Shown here: positions 19,721 to 30,570 of the stretch, in pieces | Numbering within the stretch: position 1 is the first letter of the stretch | How the letters are laid out: every line of letters begins with the position of its first letter | Assembly: GCA_046290225.1 (NCBI GenBank) | Contig: JBKAGE010000047.1 | Location: 1 to 64,000 of the forward strand | DNA from: Bradymonadia bacterium | GTDB taxonomy: Bacteria > Myxococcota_A > Bradymonadia > UBA7976 > UBA1532 | DNA length: 64,000 nt | Reading direction: 5' to 3' | Notes under the pieces: generated by a model | Told to the model about the DNA's origin: nothing | Database searches by the model: none | Seen by the model: only the letters and a program-made list of their open reading frames with translations | Position numbers and translations under genes: made by a program

Positions 19721-21811
19721 CTACAACCTGGGTTTGCGGCGACGGCCACGACGACGGCCCACCAGATCAGGCTCGAAGGCGGGCAGCCCCAACGCCATCC
19801 CCCGGTCTTTCATGATCTGCACTTGTCGCGCCCGGGCATCCTGTACGTCCGAGCGCCCCTCGGGGTCATGATGCAGGTTGAACAGCTTCGCCTGAGTGGC
19901 GTGACGCGCCACCTCGAGCTTCCAGTTGTGCTCGATGAGCACTCCACGGGCTGGCTCTCGTCGGCGGTTGAGCAGCTCGGCGTACAGCCACCGGGGCTCG
20001 AGCCCCCGGCCGGCGAGGGCGGGCCACAACGAACGCCCCACGAGGCCCGGCAGCGCCTCGGGGTGGCCACTCAGCTCAAGCATCGTCGGCGTCAGATCAG
20101 CGATGGAGACGGGGGTGTTGATCGTCCGTGGCGGCAACGCCGGCAGGCAAATCATCAGGGGCACCCTCAAGTCATCCTCTTCGAGATCCGGGCGGTGGTG
20201 ACGATCGAAGCGAGCCCCTGAAGTGCCCGCGATGATCAAAGCTGCTCGATAGACATCCTCGCGCCCCCACAGAGTCGCCACGAGGGGGGCCAGCGCCTGA
20301 TCGACGGCGGCGATCTCTGCCTGGCCATCGCCTTGCTGAGAGCGCCTCAGATCAGTCAGGTGGGTCCAGGCGAACCAGGTGGGATCGTCGTCCCCCTGAC
20401 CCTGCGTGTTGATCCAGCGCGTCATGTTGGTGATGGCCTCTGTGGCTGAGGGCGCCACCTCCATTTCACCAACCGGGCGCGTCACGGGTTGCCATGTGTC
20501 GAAGCCCTGCTCCAGCCCCGAGACCCCCTGACGGAAATACCAATGGGCGGGGAAACCGCCTGTGCTCACGCCTCGGGCGGACAAGATCTCGGCGATGAAG
20601 TTGTTCTGAGGCTCGAAGTGCACAAACCGCCGACCATCGCCTTCAAGGGTGGACAGCCAACGCCCGGAGAGCGCCACGGGCACCCCTGCAAAGGGCGCAG
20701 GGCTCGTGGTGTATGCGTGAGAGAAGCGTACGCAGTGGGGCTTGAGGGCTTCGAACACGGCGGGGCCCTTGCCCTCGATGCCATATGCAGCGTCGACAGA
20801 GAGGGACTCGACGGTCACCAGGGCGATGCTGTGGGGCCAGTGCGGCGCCCCCTGCACCACGTTCGACAAGGGCTTCGGCGGCCCTGCCTGAGGCACGACC
20901 GGATCAGGCGCCGGCGGACCCATGACCACGGGCGCTGGCAAATCGACCCCATCGCAATCCTCATCGATGCCATTGCCGGGCATGTCCAGAGCGCCAGGGT
21001 GTGTGCTGGCGAGTTCATCGTTGCAGTCGACTCCACCAAAGGCTCCAGGGAACCCGTCCTCGTCTCCGTCGAAGCTGCTCCGAGCCCAACTGAGCACCAC
21101 AGGGCCAGCGCCTTCGCCCTTGGCGAGCACGAGACGATCCTCGAGGCTGCCGAGGGAGAGATGGGCGGTCAGCAATGCCACGAGGGGCCACACTGACACG
21201 CCCCACGCCCACCAGATACGCTGCGACGCAGGCCGCGCCATGACCCAGCGCTGCCAACGGGCCACGCAGCGCTCACCCATAGCCCACCAGGCCACGAGCC
21301 AGCCCACCACGGCGCCTTCCGGCCCCGGAGACAGCCCCCACGCCATACTCAGCCCGGCGAGGGCCCACCATCGACCAGGCCGCACCCAGCGGCGCCACCG
21401 CGCCGTAGAGGCCGTGGCCCCTCGAGCCAGGCGGCGAGCCAGGATCGGGCTGAACACCATTGCCGCAGCCATGCCGCCCAACATCATCAACCCGCGATGT
21501 GCCAGAGGATCGATCGTGTGCACCCACCACCCGAGCCCGACGCCCACACAGGCCATCAGACCTTGAGCAGCGCGGGCACACCGAGGCAAAAAATGAGCGG
21601 GGGCCCAGAAGCGGGTGATGCTCGGCGCGCACAAGCTCCGCCCGAGCATCGCGCCCACCAGCCCACCAGCCACGGCGAGGGCCAGGCTGATGCCCACCAC
21701 CGGCGTCTCTGCGATCCAGGCTTCCACTGCGCCGACGAGGGCACCGACGACACCACCGGCGAGGGCATGACCTGAAGGGGGCTTGAGGGCATTTCGGCTT
21801 CGGCGACTCAC
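19721..21811 (-). CDS. membrane-anchored sulfatase-like (LTA synthase-like) protein with MopE-type repeat
   Basis: N-terminal TMs; DGDEDGF..DCND..HPGA.D.PGNGIDEDCDG; degenerate sulfatase motifs (F.HAY, RVPL, D.TPT.LEL). Confidence 0.7.
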   Translation of the reverse strand: MSRRSRNALKPPSGHALAGGVVGALVGAVEAWIAETPVVGISLALAVAGGLVGAMLGRSLCAPSITRFWAPAHFLPRCARAAQGLMACVGVGLGWWVHTIDPLAHRGLMMLGGMAAAMVFSPILARRLARGATASTARWRRWVRPGRWWALAGLSMAWGLSPGPEGAVVGWLVAWWAMGERCVARWQRWVMARPASQRIWWAWGVSVWPLVALLTAHLSLGSLEDRLVLAKGEGAGPVVLSWARSSFDGDEDGFPGAFGGVDCNDELASTHPGALDMPGNGIDEDCDGVDLPAPVVMGPPAPDPVVPQAGPPKPLSNVVQGAPHWPHSIALVTVESLSVDAAYGIEGKGPAVFEALKPHCVRFSHAYTTSPAPFAGVPVALSGRWLSTLEGDGRRFVHFEPQNNFIAEILSARGVSTGGFPAHWYFRQGVSGLEQGFDTWQPVTRPVGEMEVAPSATEAITNMTRWINTQGQGDDDPTWFAWTHLTDLRRSQQGDGQAEIAAVDQALAPLVATLWGREDVYRAALIIAGTSGARFDRHHRPDLEEDDLRVPLMICLPALPPRTINTPVSIADLTPTMLELSGHPEALPGLVGRSLWPALAGRGLEPRWLYAELLNRRREPARGVLIEHNWKLEVARHATQAKLFNLHHDPEGRSDVQDARARQVQIMKDRGMALGLPAFEPDLVGRRRGRRRKPRL

Positions 21812-21921
21812 GGCGCCTCCCGATGAACAAACACATCACCTGGGGGCGTCTGGGCCCCCGGCATTGTGATCAGCAATGTGATAGAAACCCCGAGACACCC
21901 GACGCCGTGTGAGGCCTGACG

Positions 21922-22503
21922 ATGAACTTTGCTCTGCTGCGCGCCCCGAGCCGGGGGCTGCTCGCTTTCTCTCTCGCCCTGCTCACCCTCAGCCTCGGCC
22001 TGAGCCTGAACGCACCGGTGGCGCACGGGCGCAGCCCGGCCAAGGCCCTGAAGGGGCGGGTGATCCTGTCGACCACCCCTTTTCCCTTCAAGTTCAAATC
22101 GAACTCGGCGTTCATCAAGCACATGAAGAAGGTCGACACCAAAGCCTTCAACCTTGAAAAAGGTCGGCAGACCAACGTCGAGCTGATGGCATTCTTCGGC
22201 AAGGCCATCAAAGCCACCGAGGTCACGGCCACCATCTACGACATCACCGAGAAGCCCCAGGAGATGGTGGAGACGTTCCCCATCTACCTGCAGGGCAACA
22301 AGGCCGAGCAGATCGTGGCGAGCAACTTCGCCCTCGACCTCGACAGCTATAAGCTCGAGCGCCGCTACATGCTGGTGATCACGATGGGTTACCGGGGCAA
22401 GATGCTGGCAAAGACCACCTTCGCGGTGAAGGCGACCGCCGCCCAGCGCGCGGCGATGAAAGCGGAGCAGAAGGCCGCCCAGAAGGCCATGGACATGGAA
22501 TAA
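21922..22503 (+). CDS. hypothetical secreted protein
   Basis: Signal peptide; strong codon bias. Confidence 0.7.
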   Translation: MNFALLRAPSRGLLAFSLALLTLSLGLSLNAPVAHGRSPAKALKGRVILSTTPFPFKFKSNSAFIKHMKKVDTKAFNLEKGRQTNVELMAFFGKAIKATEVTATIYDITEKPQEMVETFPIYLQGNKAEQIVASNFALDLDSYKLERRYMLVITMGYRGKMLAKTTFAVKATAAQRAAMKAEQKAAQKAMDME

Positions 22504-22509
22504 GGTGCG

Positions 22510-24240
22510 CTAACGCACGCACCTGAAGCCCACCTCGGGCAAGCTGCTGCGGGGGTTCATCAGCAACGGGAAGTTCCGCCACGTGAGGGTGCTGAACGCC
22601 GCCGCTGATCCGTAGCTGCCCCCCCGCACGGGGATGAAGTCCTCGATCCCACCCTCCAGAGCAGGCGGATCCCGCTCCGGCACACGGCTGTAGTACTGGG
22701 GGTCGTACACGCCCGCCACCAGCTCGTGCACGTTCCCGCCGAAGTCGAAGCCGCCGTTGTCGTTCACGTCACCTGCCGTCGACATCACCTGCAGGGGGCC
22801 GTCATTGCAGTTGTTCACGTTGGCGCGAGCGCAATCTGGAAGCGCGTTGCCCCAGGGGTAGCGAATGCGGGCCGTGCCGTTGCTGCCTCGGGCCGCCCGC
22901 TCCCACTGGGCCTCAGTGGGCAAGCTGCCTCCAGCCCAGTTGCAGTATGTCGACGCCTGGATCTGGTTCACGAAGACCACTGGGTGATTCACGAAGGCCG
23001 GATCCTCGTATCGCAGGCTCGAGGAGAGGTTGGGGTTGCGGTAGGGCGGCCGGCAACGGTTCGCCGCCACACAGGCCGCGTACTGACCATTGGTCACCTC
23101 GTGCACCTCGATGGAGAACGCGCTCAGAGTGATCTCGCGCTGAGGCACCTCGTCGCAGTTCTCGTCGTTGTCAGGGTTCTGAGCGCACGAGGCCTGATCA
23201 GCATCCTCGCTGCCCAGCAAGCTCGGCCCTTCAGGGATGGAGATGAGTTCCGTGCGCAGATCGCTGGGGCAGCCGTCATCGACAAAACCATTGCAGTCAT
23301 TGTCGACGCCGTCACAGGCCTCGTCAGCCCCAGGGAAGGTGCCCGGATCGCTGTCGTTGCAGTCACCGGCCCCACCGGCTACTCCGTCACCGTCGTTATC
23401 GGCGTCGCCGTCACAGGCGTCGCCCACCCCGTCGCCATCAGAGTCGGCCTGATCGGGATTCACGCTGCCGCCACAGTTGTCGCAGGCGTTGCCCACCCCG
23501 TCGAAGTCCAGGTCGGCCTGTCGCGGATCAGGATCGTTCGGGCAGATGTCGTCGGCGTCGGCGATGCCGTCACCATCAGCGTCATCTGTGGGGCATTCGG
23601 CGTCAGCACCGCTGCAATCGTCGTCACGGCCGTTGTCGCAGGTCTCGACGTTCCCAGGGAAGATGCGGGCGTTGGCGTCATCGCAGTCGCCCTGAGCCAC
23701 ACTCACCCCGTCGCCGTCCATGTCGACCTCGTCACAGCGCAGGTCACGGCCATCGCAGTCCTGATCGATCCCGTCGTCGCACGTCTCCAGACGCCCGGGG
23801 GTGATCAAGATGTCGTCGTCGTCGCAGTCACCTTCCTGCTCGCTGAAGCCGTCCCGATCCCGGTCCACGTTCTCGCAGCTCAGATCCTCGCCGTCACAGT
23901 CTTGATCGATCCCATCGCCGCAGATCTCGGTGCCGCCGGGGAACACGCGGGGGTTCGCGTCGTCGCAGTCCCCTGCAGAGACCGAGACGCCATCGCCGTC
24001 GCCGTCTTCCTCACCGCACACCAGATCAGAGCCGTTGCAGTCCTGATCGATCCCGTCGCCACAGATCTCGTCTGCGAGCGGGTTGATGGTGGGATCACCG
24101 TCGTTGCAGTCACCGAGCTCTGTCGAATACCCGTCGCCGTCCGCATCTCCGTTGGGATCGGCGGCCTCGTCGCCTCGATCGACGCACGCCCCGAGCAGCC
24201 CGACGCAGAGGAGTCCCACACACAGTGTGCTCGGCCTCAG
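22510..24240 (-). CDS. lipoprotein with MopE-type and thrombospondin-3-like repeats plus FGE-sulfatase (SUMF1/EgtB) domain
   Basis: Lipobox LLGAC; repeated DGDG..GDC.D....PG..E.C.DG.D.DC; EVTN.QY, LPTEAQWERAARG, GNVHE, RGGS, GFRC; start approximate. Confidence 0.85.
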   Translation of the reverse strand: MRPSTLCVGLLCVGLLGACVDRGDEAADPNGDADGDGYSTELGDCNDGDPTINPLADEICGDGIDQDCNGSDLVCGEEDGDGDGVSVSAGDCDDANPRVFPGGTEICGDGIDQDCDGEDLSCENVDRDRDGFSEQEGDCDDDDILITPGRLETCDDGIDQDCDGRDLRCDEVDMDGDGVSVAQGDCDDANARIFPGNVETCDNGRDDDCSGADAECPTDDADGDGIADADDICPNDPDPRQADLDFDGVGNACDNCGGSVNPDQADSDGDGVGDACDGDADNDGDGVAGGAGDCNDSDPGTFPGADEACDGVDNDCNGFVDDGCPSDLRTELISIPEGPSLLGSEDADQASCAQNPDNDENCDEVPQREITLSAFSIEVHEVTNGQYAACVAANRCRPPYRNPNLSSSLRYEDPAFVNHPVVFVNQIQASTYCNWAGGSLPTEAQWERAARGSNGTARIRYPWGNALPDCARANVNNCNDGPLQVMSTAGDVNDNGGFDFGGNVHELVAGVYDPQYYSRVPERDPPALEGGIEDFIPVRGGSYGSAAAFSTLTWRNFPLLMNPRSSLPEVGFRCVR

Positions 24241-24247
24241 AACGGCC

Positions 24248-24457
24248 TCACTCCATGAGAACGTCGACGATCTTGTCCAGCTTCTTCTTGGCCACACTTT
24301 TGAACTCCCGACCGAACTCTTTGTAGAAGTCCTCAGCGAACCCCTTGGGGTCATCTTTGAACTTCTCAGCCAGCTCGTGATTGCGAAACTCGATGCCGGT
24401 GAAGAACCCGCCCCCAAACCCCAGGGCCACCAACAACAACAAAGACAGAATGCGCAT
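24248..24457 (-). CDS. small membrane-anchored hypothetical protein (69 aa)
   Basis: MRILSLLLLVALGFGGGFF N-terminal anchor followed by a charged helix. Confidence 0.6.
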   Translation of the reverse strand: MRILSLLLLVALGFGGGFFTGIEFRNHELAEKFKDDPKGFAEDFYKEFGREFKSVAKKKLDKIVDVLME

Positions 24458-24517: not shown

Positions 24518-25420
24518 CTACACCAGCCCCGACCAGATCAACAGAGTCCCCTGTAACAGAAAGGGCAGGGCGAGGGCGAACAACGCCCGGCCGAAGACGG
24601 CGTTGTGGGCCAGGCGCAACCCGCCCACCAGCAAAATGACGTCCAGGAAGGCCCCGATGAGGTGACCCACCAGGGGGATCACCAACAACAGGTGGGTGAC
24701 CCGACCATAGGCGAAGACCCTGAAGGTGGCCTCTGCAGATCTGCGCGGGCCCCCGTAAAGCCCCAGGCCCAGATGCGTCAGCGCGGCGGCGATGCCCATC
24801 TCCAGCAGGGCGGCGACGGGCACCAGGGGCAAGAGCAAGAGGGGGCTTCGGGTCTCGGTGAAGCCCGTGAGGTGGTCGAGCAACACCAGCGTGGGGCTGG
24901 CCCACACCGCCTGACCCGCGAGGCTGGCCCGGAAGGTGAGCGCCAACTCGCCGATGAGGGTGCACACCAGAGCGAAGATGAGCGGGGTGCGCCAGTCCCC
25001 CTTCGACCAGGGCACCCCTTGCATGAACTGAAACGGCGCAGTCACGGCGCTCACGCAGGTGGCCCACAGGGCACTGACCGCGCTGGGGAACCGGCCTGAG
25101 GCCTCCCAGGGGATCAGATCTTCTGCAGATGGCTCGGGTGGCCACGCAACATCTGCCGCGGCAGGCGCTTTGGGCACCCCATCACGCGTGTCGAGCTCGA
25201 TCCCCGTGGCGAGACCTTCCATCACCGGGCAGGGCAGGCCTTCGGCGGTGAAGGTACACACGGCGAGGCCGTCGGCGTCCACGCGACGCATCTCGGCGCA
25301 AATGGGCTTGAGACATCGAGTACAGATCGCCTCTGCAGGTCGATCCGGGTGCAAGGTGCACCGACGAGGCCCGCCTTCGGACGAGGGGGCCCCTGAGGGA
25401 TCCTCAGGTGAGGTCGTCAC
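24518..25420 (-). CDS. B-box-like zinc finger + YIP1-like membrane protein
   Basis: C.LHP....ICTRC.KPIC; IPWE; multiple TMs; overlaps the ffh stop. Confidence 0.7.
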   Translation of the reverse strand: MTTSPEDPSGAPSSEGGPRRCTLHPDRPAEAICTRCLKPICAEMRRVDADGLAVCTFTAEGLPCPVMEGLATGIELDTRDGVPKAPAAADVAWPPEPSAEDLIPWEASGRFPSAVSALWATCVSAVTAPFQFMQGVPWSKGDWRTPLIFALVCTLIGELALTFRASLAGQAVWASPTLVLLDHLTGFTETRSPLLLLPLVPVAALLEMGIAAALTHLGLGLYGGPRRSAEATFRVFAYGRVTHLLLVIPLVGHLIGAFLDVILLVGGLRLAHNAVFGRALFALALPFLLQGTLLIWSGLV

Positions 25421-27081
25421 TTCTTGCGCTGCTTCTTTCGAGCGGCGCGGGCCTTCTTGTTCTTCTTGCGCGCAGTGGCCTTGGCCTTGCGCTGGGTCTC
25501 ACCGGTCTTCCGGGCCCCGCCGGGGGTGCCCGGGGGCAGGTAGCCCTTGGGCAGACCAGGCAGCATGTCGTGGATGTCGGCGCCAGCAGGCAGGCTGCCG
25601 CCGGGCATCATCCCAGGCATCATCCCAGGCATCATGCCGCCACCGGCGCCGCCGGGACCGGGGACCCCGAACTGGCCGAAGACGTTGCCCATGTCCATGC
25701 CCTTGAGCTGCTGCATCTGGGCGAACTGCTTGAAGCCCGGCAGCTTGTAGAGCAGGTTGCCGCCGCCCGGGGAGCCGATGGCCCCCATGATCTTGCGCAT
25801 GGCCTTGAAGCGGCCGATGAGCTCGGTGACCTCTTGGGTCTCGGTGCCCGAGCCCTTGGCGATGCGATTGGCGCGACCCTTCTGGCGCTCGATGAGCTCG
25901 GGCTTGCTGCGCTCCTGCTTGGTCATGGACTGGATGATGGCCTCGATGCGCACGAGGGCCTTGTCGTCCATCTGGGCGCCCTCAGGCAGCCCGTCGGAGA
26001 AGAAGGGCAGCTTCTCCATGAGATCGCCGAGAGAGCCCATCTTCTTGATGGTGCGGATCTGCTCCAGGAAGTCCCACATGTCGAACTTGCCGGAGAGCAG
26101 CTTCTTGGCGTCTGCCTCGGCCTGCTCCTGGTCGATGACCTCTTCGAAGTCTTTGACCAGGCCCACGACGTCGCCGAGGCCCATGATGCGGCTGGCGAGG
26201 CCCTGAGGCCGGAACTCTTCGAGGGCGTCGAGGCCCTCGCCCATACCGAGGAACTTGATGGGCTTGCCGGTGACCGACTTGATCGACAGCGCCGCACCAC
26301 CGCGGGCGTCACCGTCGAACTTGGTCATGATGAAGCCGCTGATGCCGATGCGCTCGTCGAAGGTCTTCGCGGTGCGCACGGCGTCTTGGCCGATCATGGA
26401 GTCGACGACGAGCAAGGTGTTGTCCGGCTTGGTCCGGCCCTTGATGTCGTTGAGCTCGGCCATCAAGGCTTCGTCGATGGCGAGGCGGCCGGCGGTGTCG
26501 AAGATGACCACGTCGCGACCGCGGCTCTTGGCGATCTCCAGCGCGTCGGCGCAGATCTTCGGCGGGGTCTGGCCCTCTTCGTGATAGACGGGCACGTCGA
26601 GGCGCTGGCCGAGGACCTTGAGCTGGTCGACGGCGGCGGGGCGGTAGATGTCGGCGGCGACCAGCATGGGACGCCGGCCCTCGCCGATGAGGAACTTCGC
26701 CAGCTTGCCGGTGGTGGTGGTCTTACCAGCACCCTGCAGACCCACCATCATGATGGTGGTGATGCCCGCGCTGTAGTTCAGGCTGGTGTCGACGGGCCCC
26801 ATGAGCCCTTCGAGCTCGTCGAGGCAGATCTTGACGAAGCGGTCGCCGGCGGTGACCGAGCGATCCATGCCCTCGCGCTGACCGACATCGACCACCTGGC
26901 CGAGGCTCTTCTCCTTCACCCGCTGGATGAAGCCCCGGACGACCTTGAAGTCGACGTCGGCCTCAAGCAGCGAGACGCGCACCTCGCGCAGCGCCTCGTC
27001 GATGTTTTCCTCGGTGAGTTCCCGCTTGCCCTGGAAGCGGTGGCGCAGTGAGCGGAAGCCTTTGCTGACGGTCTCGAGCAT
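25417..27081 (-). CDS. ffh: signal recognition particle protein Ffh
   Basis: LLEADV, GLQGAGKTTT, DTAGR, TKFDGDARGG, Met-rich M domain. Confidence 0.97.
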   Translation of the reverse strand: MLETVSKGFRSLRHRFQGKRELTEENIDEALREVRVSLLEADVDFKVVRGFIQRVKEKSLGQVVDVGQREGMDRSVTAGDRFVKICLDELEGLMGPVDTSLNYSAGITTIMMVGLQGAGKTTTTGKLAKFLIGEGRRPMLVAADIYRPAAVDQLKVLGQRLDVPVYHEEGQTPPKICADALEIAKSRGRDVVIFDTAGRLAIDEALMAELNDIKGRTKPDNTLLVVDSMIGQDAVRTAKTFDERIGISGFIMTKFDGDARGGAALSIKSVTGKPIKFLGMGEGLDALEEFRPQGLASRIMGLGDVVGLVKDFEEVIDQEQAEADAKKLLSGKFDMWDFLEQIRTIKKMGSLGDLMEKLPFFSDGLPEGAQMDDKALVRIEAIIQSMTKQERSKPELIERQKGRANRIAKGSGTETQEVTELIGRFKAMRKIMGAIGSPGGGNLLYKLPGFKQFAQMQQLKGMDMGNVFGQFGVPGPGGAGGGMMPGMMPGMMPGGSLPAGADIHDMLPGLPKGYLPPGTPGGARKTGETQRKAKATARKKNKKARAARKKQRKK

Positions 27082-27289
27082 GGTGTCTTCGTTATCGCTG
27101 TATGGGGGGTGAAGGGGGCCGCTGTCGATGTGCTCGCAGAGGCCACGCCTGGGGCCCCAGGCTGGTCAAAACAGTCGTCGCCCAAGTGATTTGAGGCGGC
27201 TCAAATCATGGGCAAAATCCGTTGGACTCTAGGGATCGCACAGGGCATTGTCAATCGGTTGAACGGCCAGCTCAGCAGGAGGGCAGACA

Positions 27290-28894
27290 TTGAGCGAACC
27301 GCAAAAGAGCGCTCGACCAGAGGCTCGCAGCCTCACGGTCGAGGCCATGCTTCGCGAGATTCAGAGTGGTCGCTTCCGAGTGCCTCACTTCCAGCGGGCC
27401 TTCAAGTGGAAGTCCACCCATATATGCAACCTCTTTGACAGCCTCTATCAGGGGTATCCGATCGGCAGCCTCCTCGTCTCGGAAGACACAGGCGCTGCTG
27501 AAGTGCGCGCCTTTGGCCCTGTCACAGTGGAGAGCTCTGAGCGGCACGATGCCTGGTTCATCGTCGATGGTCAGCAAAGAGTCGTCTCCATCGCGGGCGC
27601 GCTGCTGCATCCGGACGATCACCCTCGAGGTGACGTACACGCGATCTGGTTCGACCTCGAAACAGAGACCTTTCACCGCCTGAGCAGGCGCGAACCCCCG
27701 CCCACTTGGGTACCACTCAACGCAGCCCGAAGCTTCGAGAGCATGCTCAGGTGGCTCACCAGTTGGCCGCTCAAAAGCACACGACCTGAGCTGGTCTCGA
27801 AAGCTCAAACCCTCGTCAGCCGACTCTTGGGCTACACGATCCCGATCTATGTGTTGCGCAACGCTGACCGGCAGACTTTGGTCAGGGTGTTCGAGCGCAT
27901 CAACACGTTTGGTGTGGCCATGCGGCGCGATGAGGTCTTCGATGCGCTCAACAGCAGAGGTCAAATACGCCCCATCGAAGACATGGGGCGCAGGCTTGAG
28001 CGAGAGGGTTTCGGGGCCATCAACCCAGGCTGGCTCGAGCAAATCGCTCAGGCGGTCATCCGTGCCGAGCCCACGGCGGCGTCTGATCATGGGCGCGCAG
28101 TGGCGCTCGCCGAGCCCGCCATCAGACGTACGCTGACCTTTCTCAGGGAGGACGCGTGCATTCCTCACGTCAAGCTCTTGCCCCACAAGTTGCCTTTCAT
28201 TGTGCTGCCTGGCTTCTTCCTCAAGCACCCACACCCCACACCACGTGTCCGCACACTGCTGACGTGGTGGCTCTGGCGGGGCACCTTGAGCGACGCACAC
28301 AGTCGCCCCAACAACACCGAACTCAGGCGCCTGTGGGACGCAATCGACGAAGATCAGGCGGCGTCTGCCCAGCGTATATTCGAAAGCACTCAACAGAGCT
28401 GGACTGAGGTATCGCTCACCCCACAGCTTGAGAGCCCTTGGAATGCAGGGCACGCCACGAGCAAGCACATCGCCGCAGCCATCGTCGCCGCCAGCCCCCT
28501 CCATCCCTCGACAGGCGCGCCCATCTGGCCCGATGAGGAGGCTTTGGGTGATCCCAGCAAGCTATTTCTGTCGCCCTTTGGGCGAGGCGGCCCCATCAGC
28601 AGCCGCTTTTTGTTGACTGATCCAGAGGGACTTCCACTCACAGCCGGGCAACAACAAGCAGCCTTCGAGACGCTGTATGAGGCATCAGCTTCCATCAAGG
28701 CGAGTCACGGCCTCGATGAGGCGTTCGTACGCGCCATCAGGGCAGGCGACGACTCGACAGCAACGCAAATACGCCACCAAAACCTCGCCCCGATGTTACG
28801 CACTCAGTTCGAATGGCTGACTGGCTTCGGGCGAAGCACACGGCCGGCGGTCAACTCCATCATCGAGCGCGCCCACAAGGTGATGGCTTCGTGA
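27290..28894 (+). CDS. DUF262 (GmrS/ParB-like) domain protein
   Basis: VPHFQRAFKW, LFDSL..GYPIGSLL, IVDGQQR, FERINT.G; AGGAGG RBS before TTG. Confidence 0.85.
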   Translation: MSEPQKSARPEARSLTVEAMLREIQSGRFRVPHFQRAFKWKSTHICNLFDSLYQGYPIGSLLVSEDTGAAEVRAFGPVTVESSERHDAWFIVDGQQRVVSIAGALLHPDDHPRGDVHAIWFDLETETFHRLSRREPPPTWVPLNAARSFESMLRWLTSWPLKSTRPELVSKAQTLVSRLLGYTIPIYVLRNADRQTLVRVFERINTFGVAMRRDEVFDALNSRGQIRPIEDMGRRLEREGFGAINPGWLEQIAQAVIRAEPTAASDHGRAVALAEPAIRRTLTFLREDACIPHVKLLPHKLPFIVLPGFFLKHPHPTPRVRTLLTWWLWRGTLSDAHSRPNNTELRRLWDAIDEDQAASAQRIFESTQQSWTEVSLTPQLESPWNAGHATSKHIAAAIVAASPLHPSTGAPIWPDEEALGDPSKLFLSPFGRGGPISSRFLLTDPEGLPLTAGQQQAAFETLYEASASIKASHGLDEAFVRAIRAGDDSTATQIRHQNLAPMLRTQFEWLTGFGRSTRPAVNSIIERAHKVMAS

Positions 28895-30087
28895 CCGAAG
28901 CACGCGCCGTCACAGTCCGTCTATATGGTTCGCCTGTCGGTCATCTGGAGGCCCTGGGTGATGCCGCCGAGACATACAGGTTCGAGTTCGCCCCAGAGTG
29001 GCTCTCTCGACCTGACCGCCCAGTCTTGGGTCAGCAATTCGAAGACCGCCAGCCTGGCCCTCTGATTTTTACCAATGGTGGCCTGCCGCTCTGGTTTAGG
29101 GGGCTCCTGCCCCAAGGGCGGCTGTTGCGTATGCTCAGCCGGCGCTGGGGGCTCGACCCTGACGATCACCTCGATTTGCTCATCGCCCTGGGCGCAGATC
29201 TGCCAGGTGCAGTGACCATCAACCAAACCTCTCGGCGACACAGCGCCACTGACATCAGCCCCGCTCCGACCTCCCACCCTGCCGACGCGACAGACCTTCA
29301 ACTCTCGTTCAGCCTCACGGGCGCGCAGTGGAAGCTCTCGGTCAAACCCGGAGAGCGAGGCCTCATCGTGCCTGTACGCGGTGAGTCTGGAGACTGGATC
29401 GCGAAGCTGCACGACCCAGAATATCCGGGCCTACCCCATGTGGAGTTCAACACGGCATGTTGGGCACGCGCCGCTGGCGTACACACCCCAATGTTCAGGA
29501 TGGGGCACGTGGATGAGTTTGCCCACCCTCTCCCAGTGGAGATCCCCACTGGGGATGGGCACCTTTTTTTGAGTCGTCGCTTCGACCGCAACCCGGTCTG
29601 TCATATGGAAGATTTCGCTCAGATCCTCGATCGCCCAGATCAGCAACGAGGCATCAGCGAGGACGTCGCGGCGATCCTTGCGTTGATTTGCCCCGAAGAT
29701 CTGCGCGCATTTGTCGAACGCCTCGTGTTCTGTGTGCTGAGCGGCAACGGAGACGCACACCTCAAGAACTGGTCTCTTACCTACCCGGATCGCCTCAACG
29801 GACGCCTCAGCCCAGCGTATGATCTGGTCTCTACGGTGCTTTTCTTACCCAATGACAACCTCACCTTACCCATCGGGGGGCACCGGGCGTTTGACCACAT
29901 TGATCATCACGCCTTTGAGCCGCTCGCCCGGGTCACCCGACATGACTTTGCCGAGATCGGTCAGTGGGTGCGCGAAGCCGCCCAACGGGTGAGAGCGGCA
30001 TGGCTCGCCGAGGGTGGCTTTGACTTTACCGCGTCTCAAAAGAAGTCTCTTGAGGCCCACATGGCCCGTGTCCCGTTGGTTGGTTGA
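28891..30087 (+). CDS. hipA: HipA-family Ser/Thr kinase toxin (Couple_hipA N domain + HipA_C)
   Basis: GLLPQG, DLPGAV, SLTGAQWK, WIAK, RRFDR, HMEDFAQ, GNGDAHLKNWS, LSPAYDLV; GTG start overlaps the DUF262 stop. Confidence 0.9.
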   Translation: MTEARAVTVRLYGSPVGHLEALGDAAETYRFEFAPEWLSRPDRPVLGQQFEDRQPGPLIFTNGGLPLWFRGLLPQGRLLRMLSRRWGLDPDDHLDLLIALGADLPGAVTINQTSRRHSATDISPAPTSHPADATDLQLSFSLTGAQWKLSVKPGERGLIVPVRGESGDWIAKLHDPEYPGLPHVEFNTACWARAAGVHTPMFRMGHVDEFAHPLPVEIPTGDGHLFLSRRFDRNPVCHMEDFAQILDRPDQQRGISEDVAAILALICPEDLRAFVERLVFCVLSGNGDAHLKNWSLTYPDRLNGRLSPAYDLVSTVLFLPNDNLTLPIGGHRAFDHIDHHAFEPLARVTRHDFAEIGQWVREAAQRVRAAWLAEGGFDFTASQKKSLEAHMARVPLVG

Positions 30088-30178: not shown

Positions 30179-30570
30179 ATGAGTGAGCCAGATACGCTCG
30201 TTGGTCGGTGGGTGCTGTTCCCGTGGTTCGAAGAGCACGGCGAGGCACACTTTCACCGGATGATGTAAACATCGCCAAAGAGATACGGCCATACGGGAAG
30301 CTCTTCTTCGTCGCGCATCGAGATGGGAATTACCTGAGCGCCAAGTGGGGCGATCTGACCATTCGGCTCACCCCGTCGCTCGCCAAGCGTGTAGACCAGC
30401 CCTTCCATGCCATAGGCAGCACGCTCACTCTTCAAGATGGCCGCTCAGCCAAGGTGCTTGAGGTTCAATGGCACCATGGCCGTGCGGAGCCTTTCTATAT
30501 GCTCGAGGTCGAGGGCAAGAAAAAATCTAAACGATATTGGTCTTCGGACATACGCGAGCAAACCTGTTGA
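30179..30570 (+). pseudogene. frameshifted small protein (DUF6960-like, from memory)
   Basis: MSEPDTLVGRWVLFPWFEEHGEAHFH continues in another frame as PDDVNIAK...YMLEVEGKKKSKRY; one C missing at ~30256-30258. Confidence 0.6.

Follow-up and report, generated by a model that had tools for sequence, protein, structure and literature searches.

BrxU, a restriction enzyme built on a DUF262 domain, passes from dimer to monomer upon nucleotide binding, hydrolyses all common nucleotides and can hydrolyse them without a working nuclease domain, is non-toxic when overexpressed, and needs D474 and H475 of its DHIYP motif for cleavage and phage resistance (PMC8565348). The middle domain of DUF262 proteins has been proposed to bind DNA (PMC12065111), and DUF262 proteins without an active DUF1524 nuclease (in Menshen, NsnABC, and in Dazbog, PD-T4-2 and ptuXYZ) have been proposed as sensors for separate effectors, Dazbog answering a phage methylase with abortive infection (10.1101/2022.08.27.505566; PMC10952713). 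HipA-family kinases are described with helix-turn-helix (HTH), HipS, HIRAN, resolvase-like or Stl-like partners, and the accessible text of that survey contains no 'DUF' (Gerdes et al. 2021, PMC8262856); HipA with DUF3037 is a validated phage-defence pair whose kinase is toxic without this non-HipB partner (PMC12548924; PMC13092281). Here we analyse a locus that combines the two protein types, found in a 64,000-nucleotide (nt) stretch of a Bradymonadia bacterium (assembly GCA_046290225.1, contig JBKAGE010000047.1, positions 1 to 64,000; the whole stretch is hereafter the window). Its first gene (gene 1) encodes a BrxU/GmrSD-like DUF262 protein and its second (gene 2) a HipA kinase (Table 1). 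With a probability of about one half, we consider this pair a two-gene toxin-antitoxin-type defence system, gene 1 acting as sensor and antitoxin and gene 2 as kinase toxin, a chain of events that is conditional throughout.

According to its AlphaFold model (pLDDT 93), gene 1 encodes a full-length BrxU-like protein whose three-part architecture extends through the C-terminal domain: a ParB-like DUF262 nucleoside triphosphatase (NTPase) domain, a helical middle domain and a degenerate HNH-type domain. Its only Pfam match was GmrSD_N (amino acids (aa) 19-219, E 3e-22), leaving no DUF3037 or DUF1829. FQRxxxW, LFDS, DGQQR and FERIN are all present, so that the type IV DUF262 motif set (QRxxxW/DGxQR/FxxxN) is complete; an earlier reading of this DNA from its letters alone (the sequence-only reading) had recognized a DUF262 protein at 27290 by the first, third and fourth of these motifs, and rightly so. 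The 36 HipA-linked copies used for the DGxQR count in Table 1 come from loci chosen independently of that motif; its occurrence in 105 of 105 members of the larger pair set is partly circular because the genome scan used the motif as a pattern. That set comprises distinct pairs in which both genes are long and high-scoring, broken kinases being excluded. The best Foldseek match of the model was BrxU (E 5e-9), and VIA-align superposed residues 10-508 on residues 1-579 of BrxU 7p9m (Z 16.2, 447 aligned residues) with a root-mean-square deviation of 15.7, indicating that the domains are placed differently in the model. The pair thus resembles BrxU/GmrSD (and also HEC-05, HEC-06 and SspE) in whole-protein architecture and in its RLFDS-like and DGQQR motifs, but differs from them by its obligate kinase partner and by the lack of a DHIYP-type nuclease motif.

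This last difference was traced in the C-terminal domain, which we compared with that of BrxU within the whole-protein model. The domains of kinase-linked proteins and of distant, HH-bearing relatives matched each other in hhalign (probability 98%, E 2.6e-13; reversed control E 0.43). At aa 421-428 gene 1 has DPSKLFLS where these relatives have E-x-HH-I-FP, and the E-x-HH-x-FP...N...N signature of the latter can be read as the counterpart of BrxU DHIYP. None of the 105 kinase-linked gene 1 proteins keeps the HNH catalytic histidine motif. A loose motif pattern flagged one of 36 kinase-linked and one of 21 ATPase-linked proteins, neither of which carries the motif at the aligned site. Pfam GmrSD_C had no match even in the HH-bearing relatives, so that their label as nucleases derives from the motif and the structural match to BrxU. 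All three HH-bearing proteins with available DNA (two in L054, one in L092) lack a kinase neighbour. The sequence-only reading, which saw no HNH/DUF1524 motif in the C-terminal half, was right about the motif; the domain itself persists in degenerate form. The genome of the window has a further DUF262 gene from this wider family, truncated and at a contig end (L090 9944-10417, G000:C52), after a 1340-aa PD-(D/E)XK-helicase gene resembling DpdJ/MkoA.

Gene 2 is, as judged from its motifs and domains, a HipA-family kinase with an intact catalytic apparatus. It matched Couple_hipA (aa 8-110, E 9e-19) and HipA_C (aa 140-371, E 3e-37) at bit scores far beyond the curated cut-offs (68.2 vs 22.5 and 128.8 vs 30.5, respectively), and its model (pLDDT 91) matched full-length HipA structures in Foldseek (E 3e-19, template modelling score 0.72-0.76). 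GNGDAHLKN and SPAYD, reported as intact in the sequence-only reading, are indeed present, and K172, E185, D288, H290, K292, N293 and D311 do not vary across the 105 pairs. Most named close homologues of the window kinase are from Myxococcota. The pair shares with the hipBA and other Hip kinase organisations of Gerdes et al. (2021) the full-length HipA fold and the position of the kinase as second gene of a coupled two-gene operon; however, the adjacent HTH antitoxin gene of hipBA is absent beside the window pair. As first noted, no HipB-like HTH gene occurs within 700 nt of it in a search with a profile based on 14 HTH proteins that partner related kinases. DS-6/HipAD/PDC-M66 (HipA with DUF3037-DUF1829) also combines HipA with a non-HipB partner, which there neutralises a kinase required for phage defence, but that partner is unrelated to gene 1, and none of the PADLOC models of these systems matched the window kinase at E 0.1, the only matches being weak ones to PDC-M03A (1e-4). 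A second HipA-type kinase (L004 1006-2782, G000:C35; 465 aa, without Couple_hipA match) lies ahead of an HTH gene, in the reversed (hipAB) order.

The pairing, first noticed at a single locus, recurs widely. A pattern-based scan of GTDB genomes gave at least 290 confirmed gene 1 relatives, the best 80 of which were analysed. HipA lies directly downstream in 74, five being at contig edges and one without HipA, that is, in 74 of the 75 loci with enough DNA; in five of these 74 the kinase is broken or shortened (L188, L205, L210, L216, L219). The 74 loci represent at least 10 phyla (Actinomycetota 23, Pseudomonadota 16, Myxococcota 13, Acidobacteriota 8, Planctomycetota 6, another five phyla with a total of 6, and 2 unassigned). 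In an independent sample of 401 genomes spread evenly over the phylum of the window, the 39 gene 1 matches of at least 400 bits, the window included, were accompanied by a kinase in 34 cases, a short kinase remnant in two and an ATPase partner in two, with one at a contig end. Tree distances of both genes were correlated across the 105 pairs (r 0.80, a value reached by 0 of 999 shuffles), and of the 58 supported splits in the gene 1 tree, 47 are also present in that of the kinase and seven conflict with it. By these comparisons genes 1 and 2 are a coupled, co-inherited unit, which speaks of joint travel and not of contact. That two independent genes merely travel together could appeal to the frequent clustering of defence genes (PMC4619093), yet their fixed order, start/stop overlap, matching trees and the lack of any other recurring neighbour (no third gene among the 40 neighbour clusters listed) make such an explanation very improbable. 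Single-protein patterns detected no gene 1 relative in viral contigs, where the three kinase matches were all HTH-linked; separately, there was one weak match in a phage record. Intact-looking copies occur in the cultured strains Azospirillum sp. B510 (WP_247894530.1/WP_042446031.1), Myxococcus qinghaiensis, Asanoa, Dactylosporangium and Micromonospora.

The sequence-only reading had proposed that the DUF262 protein replaces the antitoxin, and the neighbourhoods of related kinases agree with this idea. Among 80 related metagenome kinases, 18 have a DUF262 gene upstream, 51 an HTH gene and none both, the remaining 11 being without partner call, mostly for too little DNA. As for the phylum sample, its close kinases lacking DUF262 comprised four HTH-linked, two contig-end and one truncated case, and only one of 112 pair loci had an HTH match nearby, weak and on the opposite strand. 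Across a kinase tree with 112 DUF262-linked and 68 HTH-linked members, the partner label changes twice, compared with 54 times in shuffles. These gene contents support the view that gene 1 occupies the slot of the HTH antitoxin and is mutually exclusive with HTH partners. Kinase trees nest an HTH-linked clade within the DUF262-linked kinases with Shimodaira-Hasegawa-like approximate likelihood ratio test (SH-aLRT) values of 82-87, and the approximately unbiased test does not reject monophyly of the DUF262-linked kinases (p 0.28); we therefore claim no order for the exchange. One HTH-linked sister kinase (L125 3637-7944) is immediately upstream of Gabija (GajA, GajB).

The same slot bears on a different view of gene 1, as an activator with the same role in defence: the kinase would be self-inhibited, by its N-subdomain or by autophosphorylation, and switched on by the triggered DUF262 protein. 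DUF262 NTPases do activate effectors in GmrSD and SspE (PMC12065111; PMC10952713), the sister proteins described below are partnered by an ATPase module, a setting that does not readily suggest an antitoxin role, and in L170 a frameshifted gene 1 stands beside an intact kinase. We find this alternative unlikely, as gene 1 and HTH antitoxin genes are interchangeable in one slot, the related kinases examined included no clear case of an intact orphan, and the kinase is usually the first to decay. Indeed, among 16 odd loci the kinase was broken or lost with gene 1 intact in seven, both genes were broken in three and only gene 1 in one, a count biased because most loci were found via gene 1 and many lie in frameshift-prone metagenome assemblies. 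Decay of the kinase before its partner would fit a toxic kinase. One such record is that of Streptomyces venezuelae ATCC 10712 (L219 6710-7946), with an intact gene 1 and a kinase broken by two frameshifts. Natural splits of the HipS/HipT type were rejected: the split kinases examined result from frameshifts, stops and deletions at varied places.

Decay also weighs on a reversal of roles, in which the DUF262 protein would be the effector, by draining nucleoside triphosphates (NTPs), clamping foreign DNA or cutting in a non-canonical way, and the kinase would regulate it by phosphorylation. The nucleotide hydrolysis of BrxU mentioned above would suit such a drain, and S472-H473 and R495 are strongly conserved in the C-terminal domain of gene 1 proteins. 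However, conservation at these H and R positions extends to the HH-bearing relatives and to BrxU, which points to a structural role; gene 1 stays intact after kinase loss in the seven loci, so that an unregulated gene 1 is tolerated; and overexpressed BrxU is harmless (PMC8565348). We regard reversed roles as quite unlikely.

If gene 1 acts instead as antitoxin, the two proteins should touch, and each has a feature characteristic of the pair (Table 1). In the kinase N-subdomain, G47, Q48 and E51 are found in 88%, 78% and 74% of the 112 DUF262-linked kinases, as against 0-5% of 57 sister HTH-linked kinases and 0% of 11 classic hipBA kinases; HTH-linked kinases have LS(A/L) at this position. W191 joins the patch as a hallmark of DUF262-linked kinases and is replaced in both HTH-linked groups. 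On the side of gene 1, a [DEN][RTSK]P element occurs within the last 45 aa of 70 of the 105 kinase-linked proteins, one of 19 ATPase-linked proteins and none of 18 HH-bearing ones. The V45-E51/W191 patch and the DRP tail are candidate contacts, suggested by sequence differences that reflect very few independent events.

Among named systems, the nearest relative of gene 1 is a subunit of PDC-M55, a PADLOC candidate composed, in the loci seen here, of an ABC ATPase (M55A), M55B (without Pfam family) and a long DUF262 protein (M55C). The best PADLOC match of gene 1 was M55C (E 1.7e-49 over aa 2-353), and M55C-type proteins are its nearest outgroup, likewise without HNH motif. Nevertheless, true M55 loci reach higher M55C scores (up to 338 vs 167 bits) and have no kinase, and neither M55A nor M55B was matched in the window neighbours or, by profile, among the best 80 of the 290 genome loci. 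The lower-scoring tier of our phylum search corresponded to PDC-M55, with an ABC ATPase (M55A, also NsnB-like), M55B and DUF262. A quick IQ-TREE phylogeny of 104 proteins placed all 36 kinase-linked proteins in one branch (SH-aLRT 100, length 0.82), together with 20 database homologues of unavailable context, two ATPase-linked proteins and one contig-end protein; HH-bearing proteins formed a separate branch (SH-aLRT 99). As both kinase-linked and PDC-M55 proteins are HNH-less, a nuclease-less BrxU-like family appears to serve two different partner modules. We consider possible, though on balance doubtful, a wider scenario in which a type IV restriction enzyme minus its nuclease site became the modified-DNA-sensing, NTP-switched antitoxin of a kinase, the same disarmed sensor family being plugged into two outputs (HipA kinase or PDC-M55 ATPase module) and the kinase lineage having swapped this sensor with an ordinary HTH antitoxin. 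In L070 (7935-12234) and L071 (4930-8719), proteins of the kinase-linked branch have an M55A-like ATPase upstream and no kinase, possibly a switch of output module.

The PDC-M55 loci themselves (L035-L053, L091, L093, L309) contain an ABC ATPase with DUF3696, M55B and a long DUF262 protein without HNH motif; since their DUF262 protein is HNH-less and their ATPase matches NsnB, PDC-M55 looks Menshen-like, with a different gene order. The window pair is like Menshen, Dazbog, PD-T4-2 and ptuXYZ in having a DUF262 protein without active DUF1524 nuclease, but those proteins are described, in the accessible texts, as lacking DUF1524 whereas gene 1 retains a degenerate copy. No NsnB or NsnC gene was detected in the window or in the best 80 of the 290 loci with the M55A/NsnB-like ATPase profile, and the word 'kinase' does not occur in the accessible text of the Menshen survey (PMC12065111).

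How such a system might work can be sketched from its parts. The gene 1 protein would bind the kinase and keep it off, in place of HipB, while retaining two properties of its ancestors, type IV restriction enzymes: the nucleotide-driven dimer/monomer cycle and the DNA-binding cleft. The trigger, most likely modified foreign DNA but alternatively a shift in the nucleotide pool, would alter its shape and free the kinase. The target of the kinase would be a translation factor, by analogy with E. coli HipA and HipT probably an aminoacyl-tRNA synthetase, and its phosphorylation would halt growth of the infected cell.

We looked for a link with defence in the flanks of the pairs, scanning 123, then 61 of 106, then 97 longer pieces of flanking protein with PADLOC (from crude gene calls, some proteins cut to 450 aa). 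One pair lies between pglX and pglZ (L086) and another between drmMI-PDC-S48 and drmA (L176); pglX/pglZ and drmMI/drmA are core genes of BREX and DISARM, respectively. In L065 the order is helicase-ATPase-open reading frame (ORF)-pair-drmMI, and in L066 a DNA methyltransferase adjoins the pair. The remaining flank matches were isolated or unspecific (SoFic, subtilase, Ser/Thr kinase, ABC ATPase, PDC-M28C). A plain toxin-antitoxin module for addiction or stress, with gene 1 as a ParB/KorB-like DNA-binding antitoxin and repressor devoid of phage sensing, would explain why copies are mostly solitary among housekeeping genes, why two lie on Azospirillum plasmids, one beside conjugation and recombinase genes, and why HTH-linked sister kinases are common on plasmids; in the window, moreover, a perfect palindrome lies upstream of gene 1 (27187-27208). 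Nevertheless, a 530-aa three-domain NTPase with invariant motifs would be a costly plain antitoxin, and no shared operator emerged, the best upstream inverted repeats averaging 6.2 bp, compared with 5.9 bp in shuffled sequences (99 loci). In addition, three copies are embedded within defence systems, and PDC-M55-type control loci, with PADLOC matches in 0 of 41 flanking proteins, are equally solitary, so that solitude says little in these taxa. We thus judge a plain addiction module improbable.

Several points count against a defence system of sensor-antitoxin and kinase toxin. Only ~4 of ~100 pair loci neighbour a clear defence-system core gene, and most copies, that of the window included, have housekeeping genes for neighbours. 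Sensing by DUF262 is a role transferred from enzymes only ~14% identical, and the loss of the gene 1 nuclease is read from motifs. The bias in the decay count adds to these, as does the absence of a fused DUF262-HipA protein among 8000 long candidates (a weak test). On the other hand, Payne et al. hold that a single embedded instance justifies testing (10.1101/2024.01.29.577857).

Both parts of the pair and the sensor-toxin logic are already known; what we did not find described is the pairing itself, with a disarmed type IV enzyme in the antitoxin slot. The sequence-only reading did not recall it among HipA organisations, and it is indeed missing from the partners in the accessible text of Gerdes et al. 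(2021). Nor did it appear in the full-text literature searched, which is mainly non-subscription and whose supplementary catalogues may list the operon unnamed. It is absent from the accessible parts of PMC4619093, PMC12839542 and 10.1101/2025.01.08.631966; the one text naming both DUF262 and HipA (PMC11980606) has HipA, in its accessible part, in reference titles only; and literature listings for HipA together with GmrS, BrxU/ParB/kinase or PF03235/COG1479 contained no relevant paper. The PADLOC search matched no named system with the pair, the nearest being PDC-M55C without kinase, and the name 'PDC-M55' is absent from the paper texts searched. Beyond what had first been noticed, our comparisons suggest that gene 1 corresponds to an entire BrxU-like enzyme whose nuclease domain is dead, with PDC-M55C as sister group. 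The natural switching-on of HipA-type kinases is a long-standing gap, for which a partner that combines an enzymatic switch with a probable DNA-binding cleft would offer a trigger. Sensing would be separated from cutting in the GmrSD/BrxU family, whose recognition of modified DNA is unresolved, and a restriction enzyme would have turned into an abortive-infection sensor, in a unit that extends to cultured strains.

In the window, the pair lies, as first described, between ffh (SRP54; divergent, upstream) and a YfhO-family gene (convergent, downstream), from which a 120-aa ORF (30208-30570, +) separates gene 2; the overlap of the gene 1 TGA with the gene 2 GTG was likewise correctly recognized (Table 1). 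The lower GC content at third codon positions (GC3) also holds (0.71 and 0.67 for genes 1 and 2, 0.77-0.92 for 10 neighbouring genes), a mild shift from a genome-wide median of ~0.79 (crude). In 20 relatives the 1.5 kb upstream of ffh contain no DUF262 gene, and three members of the same family have the pair at other sites; on this basis, in a comparison with genomes from outside its genus, the site looks acquired. Repeats at potential insertion ends were chance-like only, and the promoter/terminator scan of the window gave one sigma-70-like site facing ffh, at chance level.

Table 1 Features of the DUF262-HipA pair in the window
Feature	Position	Strand	Basis or remark
Gene 1, BrxU/GmrSD-like DUF262 protein	27290..28894	+	ORF, TTG start, 534 aa; proposed sensor-antitoxin
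Gene 2, full-length HipA-family Ser/Thr kinase	28891..30087	+	ORF, GTG start, 398 aa; proposed toxin/effector
AGGAGG ribosome-binding site	27277..27282	+	Sequence; 7 nt ahead of gene 1 TTG
LFDS (aa 48-51), counterpart of BrxU RLFDS nucleotide/dimer-switch motif	27431..27442	+	S51 100%, D50 95% of 105 pairs
DGQQR (aa 93-97), NTP hydrolysis motif	27566..27580	+	DGxQR in 36/36 HipA-linked copies
C-terminal domain (aa 378-534)	28421..28891	+	Homologous to HH-x-FP...N...N domain of distant relatives (hhalign)
C-terminal tail element, TRP here (DRP consensus)	28838..28846	+	Marks kinase-linked copies; candidate kinase contact
GTGA start/stop overlap of genes 1 and 2 (translational coupling)	28891..28894	+	4-nt overlap in 50/105 pairs, abutting in 16/105
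N-subdomain patch V45-L-G-Q-Q-F-E51	29023..29043	+	Typical of DUF262-linked kinases
Catalytic loop GNGDAHLKN (aa 285-293) and SPAYD (aa 307-311)	29743..29823	+	Sequence

The palindrome in the gap between ffh and gene 1 has 9-bp arms and a 4-nt centre and is not conserved in other loci. The 120-aa ORF (GC3 0.59) has no Pfam or PADLOC match, ESM Atlas features weakly suggest DUF6960 (score 0.91, low recognition), and it may have arrived together with the pair. Farther upstream, in the stretch 24518-27081 (-), ffh is followed by a gene for a membrane protein of 300 aa that carries a B-box-like zinc motif at its N terminus, and sulfatase-like and formylglycine-enzyme-like genes (19721-24417, -) each have Cu-binding_MopE repeats; the order of ffh and the membrane protein gene is the same in 11 of 20 relatives.

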